Shown: in pieces, positions 26,051 to 28,523 of the stretch
Position numbering within the stretch: position 1 is the first letter of the stretch
How the letters are laid out: each line of letters opens with the position of its first letter
Assembly (NCBI RefSeq): GCF_030013595.1
Contig: NZ_CP122768.1
DNA length: 64,000 nucleotides
DNA from: Escherichia coli
GTDB taxonomy: Bacteria; Pseudomonadota; Gammaproteobacteria; Enterobacterales; Enterobacteriaceae
Direction: 5' to 3' (one strand)
Notes under the pieces: model-generated
Told to the model about the DNA's origin: nothing
Database searches by the model: none
The model's input: only the letters and a program-made list of their open reading frames with translations
Made by a program: the position numbers and the translations under genes

Positions 26051-27190
26051 TTATTGTCCTGCGAGTTGCTGAAGGGCTGTGATGACGCGGTCGGCATCGG
26101 CGGTAGTCATATCCGGGAACAGCGGCAACGAACAGATGCGTTCGCTATTCCATTCGGTATTCGGTAACGACAGCGTGGGAAAACGCTCGCGATAATATTT
26201 TTGTGTGTGAGCGGCGCGGAAATGTAACCCAGTACCAATACCTCTTTCTTTTAACGCTTCCATCAACGCATCGCGACTGATACCACAACGTTGTTCATCG
26301 ACACGAATAATAAACAGATGCCAGGCGTGAACGTGCGGCCAGGCGGGAAGGCTTAATGGCTGAAAAGGGAGAGCTGCCAGTGCTTGTTGATATTGCAGAG
26401 CAATTTCGCGCCGACGGGTGTTGAGGTGCTCTAATTTGGCTAACTGGGTCAGGGCAATCGCGGCGTTAATATCGGTCAGATTATACTTATAGCCCGGCGT
26501 TAAGACTTCAGCTTGCGGTGCACGGCCCCAGGTTTGTCTGTCATAGGCATCGACACCCAGACCGTGAAATTTTAGCATCCGTAGCTGGCGGGCAAGGTTT
26601 TCATTATCTGTAACAATCAGGCCACCTTCCGCACAGGTAATATTTTTGATGGCGTGAAACGAAAAAATAGCGGTACCTTTTGCGCCAATATGTCGGCCTT
26701 TGTAATACGTACCGACGGCATGGGCAGCATCTTCGATAACTGCGATGCCGTAACGTTCGCCAATGGCGCGAATGGCGTCAATATCTGCTGGCGCACCGGC
26801 ATAATGCACCGGAATGATGGCTTTAGTGCGTGGCGTAATGGCTGACTCGATCGCTTCAGGCGTGACCATCAGCGTATCGTGGTCGACATCCACCATTACC
26901 GGCGTTGCACCCAACAAGGAAATCATATTGAGGGTTGAAACCCAGGTCAGGGAAGGCGTAATCACTTCATCGCCCTTGCCAATTTCCAACGCCATTAGCG
27001 TGATATGCATTCCGGCGGTGGCTGAACTGACCGCGATGGCATGCTGATTTCCCGTCAACTGGCAAAAGGCTTGTTCAAGCGCCTGATTCTTCGGACCGGT
27101 TGTGATCCAACCGGATTCGAGAACCTCTTTAACTGCAGCGAGTTCCTCCACGCCCATTGCTGGTCGCGAAAAAGGCAAAAATTCTGACAT
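26051..27190 (-). CDS. arnB: UDP-4-amino-4-deoxy-L-arabinose aminotransferase, body of gene beginning at Met7 of the native protein; native start codon and promoter are displaced by IS10
   Basis: 379 codons from ATG at 27188-27190 ([13 protein letters not shown]...); the native N-terminus MAEGKA(MS) is encoded on the far side of IS10 at 28524-28546. Confidence 0.85.
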
Positions 27191-27194
27191 TGCT
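27186..27194. repeat. IS10 target-site duplication, left copy (GACATTGCT)
   Basis: identical 9-mer directly abuts both IS10 ends. Confidence 0.9.
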
Positions 27195-28523
27195 CTGATG
27201 AATCCCCTAATGATTTTGGTAAAAATCATTAAGTTAAGGTGGATACACATCTTGTCATATGATCAAATGGTTTCGCGAAAAATCAATAATCAGACAACAA
27301 GATGTGCGAACTCGATATTTTACACGACTCTCTTTACCAATTCTGCCCCGAATTACACTTAAAACGACTCAACAGCTTAACGTTGGCTTGCCACGCATTA
27401 CTTGACTGTAAAACTCTCACTCTTACCGAACTTGGCCGTAACCTGCCAACCAAAGCGAGAACAAAACATAACATCAAACGAATCGACCGATTGTTAGGTA
27501 ATCGTCACCTCCACAAAGAGCGACTCGCTGTATACCGTTGGCATGCTAGCTTTATCTGTTCGGGCAATACGATGCCCATTGTACTTGTTGACTGGTCTGA
27601 TATTCGTGAGCAAAAACGACTTATGGTATTGCGAGCTTCAGTCGCACTACACGGTCGTTCTGTTACTCTTTATGAGAAAGCGTTCCCGCTTTCAGAGCAA
27701 TGTTCAAAGAAAGCTCATGACCAATTTCTAGCCGACCTTGCGAGCATTCTACCGAGTAACACCACACCGCTCATTGTCAGTGATGCTGGCTTTAAAGTGC
27801 CATGGTATAAATCCGTTGAGAAGCTGGGTTGGTACTGGTTAAGTCGAGTAAGAGGAAAAGTACAATATGCAGACCTAGGAGCGGAAAACTGGAAACCTAT
27901 CAGCAACTTACATGATATGTCATCTAGTCACTCAAAGACTTTAGGCTATAAGAGGCTGACTAAAAGCAATCCAATCTCATGCCAAATTCTATTGTATAAA
28001 TCTCGCTCTAAAGGCCGAAAAAATCAGCGCTCGACACGGACTCATTGTCACCACCCGTCACCTAAAATCTACTCAGCGTCGGCAAAGGAGCCATGGGTTC
28101 TAGCAACTAACTTACCTGTTGAAATTCGAACACCCAAACAACTTGTTAATATCTATTCGAAGCGAATGCAGATTGAAGAAACCTTCCGAGACTTGAAAAG
28201 TCCTGCCTACGGACTAGGCCTACGCCATAGCCGAACGAGCAGCTCAGAGCGTTTTGATATCATGCTGCTAATCGCCCTGATGCTTCAACTAACATGTTGG
28301 CTTGCGGGCGTTCATGCTCAGAAACAAGGTTGGGACAAGCACTTCCAGGCTAACACAGTCAGAAATCGAAACGTACTCTCAACAGTTCGCTTAGGCATGG
28401 AAGTTTTGCGGCATTCTGGCTACACAATAACAAGGGAAGACTTACTCGTGGCTGCAACCCTACTAGCTCAAAATTTATTCACACATGGTTACGCTTTGGG
28501 GAAATTATGAGGGGATCTCTCAG
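27195..28523 (+). mobile_element. IS10 insertion sequence (1329 bp), outside end at 27195, inside end at 28523
   Basis: termini CTGATGAATCCCCTAATGATTTTGG (outside) and GGGGATCTCTCAG (inside, reverse complement of CTGAGAGATCCCC); single 402-aa transposase ORF beginning at element nt 108; flanked by a perfect 9-bp direct repeat. Confidence 0.93.
27302..28510 (+). CDS. IS10 transposase (IS4 family, DDE)
   Basis: 402-aa ORF MCELDILHDSLYQFCPELHLKRLNSLT... recognised as the Tn10/IS10 transposase. Confidence 0.93.
   Translation: MCELDILHDSLYQFCPELHLKRLNSLTLACHALLDCKTLTLTELGRNLPTKARTKHNIKRIDRLLGNRHLHKERLAVYRWHASFICSGNTMPIVLVDWSDIREQKRLMVLRASVALHGRSVTLYEKAFPLSEQCSKKAHDQFLADLASILPSNTTPLIVSDAGFKVPWYKSVEKLGWYWLSRVRGKVQYADLGAENWKPISNLHDMSSSHSKTLGYKRLTKSNPISCQILLYKSRSKGRKNQRSTRTHCHHPSPKIYSASAKEPWVLATNLPVEIRTPKQLVNIYSKRMQIEETFRDLKSPAYGLGLRHSRTSSSERFDIMLLIALMLQLTCWLAGVHAQKQGWDKHFQANTVRNRNVLSTVRLGMEVLRHSGYTITREDLLVAATLLAQNLFTHGYALGKL

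Follow-up and report, generated by a model that had tools for sequence, protein, structure and literature searches.

Insertion sequence (IS) elements can switch on or rewire the genes next to them, and IS10 is among the best described. In the classical IS10/Tn10 cases (Ciampi, Schmid & Roth 1982; Simons et al. 1983) and in Salmonella acrEF (Olliver et al. 2005), the neighbouring gene is driven by pOUT, with the outside end of the element toward the target. Activation of adjacent acrEF by IS10 is likewise documented in PMC9330008 (citing Olliver 2005) and PMC4574204. In pSU vectors, an IS10 between the promoter and the coding sequence of cat was found under antibiotic selection, and an outward IS10 promoter was proposed to drive cat (PMC4574204). 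IS elements also act on lipid A modification in Klebsiella, where IS903B, IS1, IS5 and IS10 in or upstream of mgrB alter the PhoPQ/PmrAB-arn pathway (PMC10513040). Here we describe an IS10 at the arn operon itself, in a 64,000-nt stretch of an Escherichia coli chromosome (RefSeq assembly GCF_030013595.1, contig NZ_CP122768.1; the whole stretch is referred to as the window). One IS10R has transposed into the translation-initiation region of arnB in this wild E. coli, in front of the arnBCADTEF operon for 4-amino-4-deoxy-L-arabinose (L-Ara4N) modification.

The arrangement resembles the pOUT classics in the element and its orientation. It differs from them in the target, the arn operon, and in the loss of the native Shine-Dalgarno (SD) sequence as well, so that translation is also rewired. 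Moreover, the classical cases were phenotypically selected, whereas the present one is known from sequence alone. The pSU cat insertions share the position between promoter and coding sequence; they are plasmid-borne, laboratory-selected and recurrent at a specific site, whereas the arnB insertion is chromosomal, natural and seen once. The mgrB events knock out a negative regulator and arn is induced through its own promoter, whereas here the arn promoter and ribosome-binding site (RBS) themselves would be replaced. Based on the predictions described below, we read the insertion as such a replacement, resulting in low, unregulated, PmrA-independent expression of the L-Ara4N pathway and loss of its induction. 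We consider the chances of this reading to be about even.

The element is complete, and its termini are imperfect terminal inverted repeats, CTGATGAATCCCCTAATGATTTT at the outside end and CTGAGAGATCCCCTCATAATTTC at the inside end. The product of its intact transposase gene, a DDE transposase, matches the IS4-family equivalog NF033591 with 404 bits in a profile search. Since the transposase ATG lies at IS10 nucleotide 108, the terminus at 27195 is the outside end, as the initial annotation had proposed. Tn10 of plasmid R100 has two IS10 copies; to the one on the tetD side the element has a single mismatch (nt 203), to the other it has 16, and it is therefore of the IS10R type; the tetD-side copy we take to be IS10R from the Tn10 map. 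Nucleotides 1-202, which contain the outside end, pIN, pOUT and RNA-OUT, are identical to those of the tetD-side copy. The sole difference, at window position 27397, is an A here and a C in R100, in the third position of transposase codon 32. Copies 100% identical to this IS10 are present in many plasmids. A composite Tn10 was considered and rejected: the window holds just one such IS10 end, the 23-mer of the outside end being present a single time in 64 kb (0 expected), and the element has a 9-bp duplication of its own on either side.

The 9-bp direct repeats on the two sides of IS10 are identical, and the empty site of relatives has one copy. The two nearest complete genomes are isolates from pig faeces in the UK, with an uninterrupted site and a single 9-mer; toward arn, they match the window at 100% identity over 12.2 kb, and in the opposite flank at 99.9%. 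Since these closest relatives carry the empty site, the native arrangement is known exactly. Its arn-strand sequence is ...ATGGCGGAAGGAAAAGCAATGTCAGAA..., in which the duplicated 9-mer AGCAATGTC includes the ATG. A laboratory K-12 strain with a hop of a Tn10-derived IS10 was rejected as the origin: the flanks share ~98% identity with most E. coli and 99.9-100% with the pig isolates. IS10 now sits between the arnB start codon and the native SD, GGAAGGA. The junction consists of AAATTCTGACATTGCT joined to CTGATGAATCCCC, and only 4 nt separate the arnB ATG (27190-27188) from the IS10 terminus. A hybrid promoter at this junction was set aside on account of that short distance.

The arnB coding sequence is intact. 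Its product matches the NCBIfam ArnB equivalog NF008658 with 738.9 bits (cut-off 631), residues 1-378 aligning to positions 1-378 of 379, and it matches the solved ArnB structures 1MDO and 4OCA with E values of ~1e-213. The RefSeq/PGAP annotation of the nearest relative starts arnB at the same ATG and gives 379 aa. Because this ATG is both the RefSeq start and position 1 of the ArnB model, no conserved ArnB residue is lost. The initial annotation designated it Met7 of the native protein, which is correct only with respect to an older annotation of 385 aa, also the chain length in PDB 4OCA. The coordinates given in the initial annotation were all reproduced on checking, and those of the features discussed here are collected in Table 1.

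Table 1. Features of the IS10 insertion and the surrounding arn locus (window positions; older arnB ATG and RNA-OUT in direction of reading).
Feature	Position	Strand	Remarks
IS10, complete, IS10R type	27195..28523	+	1329 bp; outside end 27195, inside end 28523
Left 9-bp target-site duplication, GACATTGCT	27186..27194		AGCAATGTC when read on the arn strand; holds the arnB start codon
Right 9-bp target-site duplication, GACATTGCT	28524..28532		second copy of the ATG, giving ATG TCC TGA into the IS10 inside end
IS10 transposase gene, intact	27302..28510	+	402 aa; from the list of open reading frames and profile match
arnB, intact	26051..27190	-	379 aa + stop; profile match; 100% identity to relative
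IS10-derived SD-like AGGGGA	27203..27208	-	12 nt upstream of the arnB AUG; predicted mostly base-paired
In-frame 20-codon upstream extension	27191..27250	-	ATGs at 27250 and 27229; mostly IS10 sequence
RNA-OUT antisense RNA	27309->27240	-	Rfam RF00240, 98.8 bits, E 1.6e-20
Candidate pOUT -10 hexamer, TAAAAT	27317..27322	-	7 nt upstream of the RNA-OUT 5' end; -35 a poor match to consensus
arnC, arnA, arnD, arnT, arnE, arnF	19840..26047	-	all intact; starts and stops overlap or abut; 100% identical to annotated relative
Displaced native SD, GGAAGGA	28535..28541	-	
ATG of the older arnB annotation	28546-28544	-	
Displaced native arn promoter	28611..28643	-	PmrA-box-like repeat and candidate -10
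ais (pmrG), divergent neighbour	28836..29438	+	313 bp downstream of the IS10 inside end; annotation transferred from relative

The orientation of the element places pOUT toward arnB, as had been suggested initially. RNA-OUT was recognized at full length (model positions 1-70 of 70; gathering score 41) on the strand opposite to the transposase, which is the arnB strand. Its 5' end at 27309 corresponds to IS10 nucleotide 115, the pOUT start, and any transcript that reads through into arnB would begin with RNA-OUT. The position of the promoter was taken from the literature (Simons 1983 via PMC9330008; PMC5006887) and from the identity to IS10R; a generic scan for sigma-70 consensus sequences picked up neither pOUT nor pIN. 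The distance from the pOUT start to the arnB AUG is 119 nt. No intrinsic terminator was predicted on the minus strand between 26900 and 28900, which covers the leader from pOUT to arnB and the whole of IS10. The outward promoter is thereby directed at a gene that is intact, and no terminator is predicted on the way. RNA-OUT is 69 nt long and ends at IS10 nucleotide 47 (PMC5006887), and some pOUT transcripts extend into neighbouring genes, at ~10% of lacUV5 activity (PMC9330008, citing Simons 1983). Transcription of arn from pOUT is plausible, but it should be a minority product.

The same features could indicate a gain of function, in which read-through from pOUT and adequate translation from the native AUG give constitutive, PmrA-independent L-Ara4N modification and raised tolerance to polymyxin, colistin or host peptides, and in which the insertion was selected. 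In favor of this, every codon is spared, and IS10 is known to activate neighbouring resistance genes such as acrEF and cat. The target is not a hotspot: by inspection it matches only 3 of 6 positions of the IS10 hotspot consensus, NGCTNAGCN. The nearest relatives come from pigs, a species with a history of colistin use. Orientation by itself is a 1-in-2 chance, however, and only a fraction of pOUT transcripts go beyond nucleotide 47. Literature searches (IS10 with arnB, insertion upstream of arnB, and IS with arnBCADTEF) turned up no description of an IS in front of arnB, or of such an insertion giving resistance. Weighing these points with the poor RBS and the rarity described below, we regard selected activation as unlikely.

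The translation signals left to arnB are poor. The only potential SD in front of the AUG is the IS10-derived AGGGGA, as stated in the initial annotation. Its duplex with the anti-SD is about equal in strength to that of the native SD (-6.4 vs -5.7 kcal/mol). The aligned spacing, by our own count, is ~12 nt in the IS10 leader vs ~4-7 nt in the native leader. In the predicted ensemble of the pOUT-arnB RNA, the probability of AGGGGA being unpaired is 0.01-0.39; for the arnB AUG, partial accessibility is predicted. Over the region from -20 to -1, the mean unpaired probability is 0.34 in the pOUT-arnB RNA vs 0.58 in a model of the native leader whose start site was a guess. Since the SD-like sequence is 12 nt away and would be sequestered, ArnB is expected to be translated inefficiently from read-through mRNA. 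This predicted sequestration also argues against high-level activation.

It had also been suggested that an ATG inside IS10 could give an ArnB with a 20-aa N-terminal extension. The in-frame ATG at 27250-27248 does open a 399-aa reading frame, and a second in-frame upstream ATG, which had been overlooked, was found at 27229-27227. The first is part of the RNA-OUT stem (3' arm) and the second of the outside-end hairpin; both are predicted to be unpaired with a probability of ~0, and neither is preceded by an SD. The extended protein was therefore set aside, as its AUG inside the RNA-OUT stem, lacking an SD, is unlikely to be translated. No product corresponding to the 399-aa fusion was present in the gene index. 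Taken together, the anatomy of the locus and the orientation argument of the initial annotation were sound; its statement on Met7 needs revision, and the idea of an extended ArnB is weak.

The native promoter and SD were shifted 1338 bp farther from arnB by the insertion, so that the distance from the promoter to the arnB ATG is now ~1.44 kb vs ~0.1 kb before. The promoter itself is preserved. A PmrA-box-like repeat, CTTAAG-GTTAA-GTTAAT, is located at 28627-28643, with one deviation from the published consensus (C/T)TTAA(G/T)-N5-(C/T)TTAA(G/T) (PMC10729948), and a candidate -10, TAAAAT, was found by inspection at 28611-28616. On a transcript from this promoter, at most the peptide MAEGKAMS or MS would be translated before the TGA created at the junction, beyond which the RNA continues across the transposase gene in antisense. 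The longest reading frame in the antisense IS10 RNA is 46 aa. The same RNA has a C-rich, G-poor patch at ~27780-27897, with a C/G ratio of up to 2.8, which is consistent with Rho loading. We infer that any block to native transcription inside IS10 would be Rho-dependent polarity.

If transcription is not blocked there, regulation might be retained: PmrA-activated transcripts would cross the 1.3-kb IS10 into arnB, with reduced inducibility and a basal floor from pOUT. The intact PmrA-box promoter and the absence of a predicted intrinsic terminator on the IS10 minus strand are compatible with this. However, such a transcript would have to pass 1.3 kb of untranslated sequence after the junction stop, including the rut-like C-rich patch, and would run head-on against transcription of the transposase gene. 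Even on arrival, arnB would still depend on the poor IS10-derived RBS. IS10/Tn10 insertions are, moreover, classically strongly polar. For these reasons retained regulation appears very unlikely.

These observations led us to favor promoter and RBS replacement. The only close-range promoter left facing arnB is pOUT. In this mechanism, most of its transcripts would end as the 69-nt RNA-OUT, and a minority would read through to give a constitutive, PmrA-independent arn mRNA with the RNA-OUT hairpin at its 5' end. Transcripts from the native promoter would largely be stopped by Rho inside IS10. The net result would be low, unregulated arn expression without induction by Fe3+, low pH or PmrA. The allele would then be a hypomorph for inducible resistance to polymyxin and cationic peptides, rather than a high-level resistance allele. 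The initial annotation had posed a choice between constitutive expression and silencing, and we lean toward the intermediate outcome.

Several points weigh against this replacement giving only low expression. The RNA-structure and Rho arguments are predictions. The coding sequence spared to the base, the correctly oriented pOUT and the 3/6 match to the hotspot consensus have the look of a selected activating insertion, and they favor that reading mildly; they are offset by the poor RBS, the single occurrence and a locus that tolerates loss. The arn operon is 100% identical to that of relatives and shows no sign of decay, which would be equally expected if the event is recent.

The insertion is rare. 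The IS10-arnB junction was present in none of the 5,426 complete RefSeq E. coli genomes, nor was it found in GTDB species-representative genomes or JGI metagenome contigs. Of 5,416 genomes matching a 600-bp probe of the empty site, 5,409 have it as a contiguous stretch. Identical copies of the 379-aa ArnB occur on many contigs, with no IS4-family neighbour among the matches listed. That the event is unique and non-recurrent speaks against selected activation of arn.

IS elements do insert at the arn locus, though rarely, and clear loss of function is among the outcomes. In strain 266917_2 (NZ_CP026723.1), an IS1 with the 9-bp duplication AACCTTAAG lies within the PmrA-box repeat (window 28635-28643; locus ~1903-2688), and a full PmrA box adjoins the IS1 end on the arnB side. 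In strain 2017-19-1CC (NZ_AP027854.1, 3248-4000), an IS1 is located between menE and ais, and arnBCADTEF and pmrD are deleted; homology returns at window position ~28710. This strain represents a natural loss of the L-Ara4N pathway. Both IS1 cases affect the same intergenic region and belong to the same class of event as the IS10 described here. They differ in that the IS1 of 266917_2 is ~115 bp upstream, with leader and SD kept, and in that the deletion in 2017-19-1CC removes the whole pathway. In GCA_030347955.1 (1233-2540), ais (pmrG) is interrupted ~460 bp upstream of arnB by an IS3-family element, which encodes a 404-aa rve transposase and whose flanks overlap by 5 bp.

The full operon deletion indicates that the region tolerates loss, which counts against selected activation and opens another alternative. 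The IS10 insertion might be a polar null, in which read-through from pOUT is negligible or untranslated, Rho cuts off transcription inside arnB, and the strain behaves as an arn mutant, the insertion being neutral or hitchhiking in a gut commensal. Both the native promoter and the SD are displaced and the replacement RBS is weak and paired. Because the arn genes overlap or abut, poor translation of arnB could spread polarity. On the other hand, pOUT read-through into flanking sequence is well documented, the leader is short and has no predicted terminator, and the arnB AUG is predicted to be partly accessible. Furthermore, arnC and the later genes are separate reading frames able to initiate independently. 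Complete silencing therefore seems to us improbable. The four readings (replacement with low expression, selected activation, retained regulation and polar null) differ quantitatively.

The insertion may also affect its other neighbour. The gene ais, which is regulated by PmrA, has the same orientation as the transposase gene. The IS10 inside end, for which the outward promoters pIII and OUTIIp have been reported, and the transposase gene are directed at it. No terminator was predicted in the window between the inside end and ais (28524-28836). Judging from this arrangement, ais may receive extra transcription from the IS10 side. Conversely, the native arn promoter (28611-28643) is now directed antisense into the transposase gene, which starts at 27302. 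It is speculative, but envelope-stress signalling through PmrA could in principle interfere with expression of the IS10 transposase.

Several further observations were made in the window and in the compared genomes. Over 64 kb, the only structural differences from the closest relative are the IS10 and a ~700-bp insert with an IS200/IS605 tnpA, which the relative carries between nuoN and yfbM and which is missing here (window 7191-7197); the rest are ~35 substitutions. According to the annotation of the relative, an ISNCY-family (rpnE-like) transposase gene and a truncated reading frame lie between yfaU and glpC (window ~36687-37658). The stretch from 28524 to 40000 is variable, being covered to at least 80% in only 3,594 of the 5,426 genomes. 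The gyrA gene (window 56873 onward) is wild type at Ser83 and Asp87, so that the window bears no sign of fluoroquinolone selection. In GCA_030347985.1 (~5112-7094), a 1-base indel was found relative to a comparison locus (L004) and arnA was uncalled, for which a frameshift or an assembly error is possible.

There is a slim chance that IS10 has swapped PmrA control of arnBCADTEF for constitutive drive from pOUT in a natural, possibly livestock-associated E. coli, which would provide a chromosomal route to tolerance of polymyxin, colistin or host peptides, independent of mcr and of pmrAB mutations; no description of such a route was found. If arn expression is indeed raised, promoter replacement at the effector operon would join the chromosomal mechanisms of colistin resistance to be considered in genome-based screens, which at present focus on mcr, pmrAB, phoPQ and mgrB. 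Either way, the insertion is a regulatory mutation of one strain and familiar in kind: an IS carrying an outward promoter has entered the 5' end of an operon. It also illustrates how an annotation pipeline can report arnB as "intact" and overlook a regulatory lesion that begins four bases before it. If induction is lowered or abolished instead, the insertion would add to the IS1 events in indicating that inducible lipid A modification is now and then lost from commensal E. coli.

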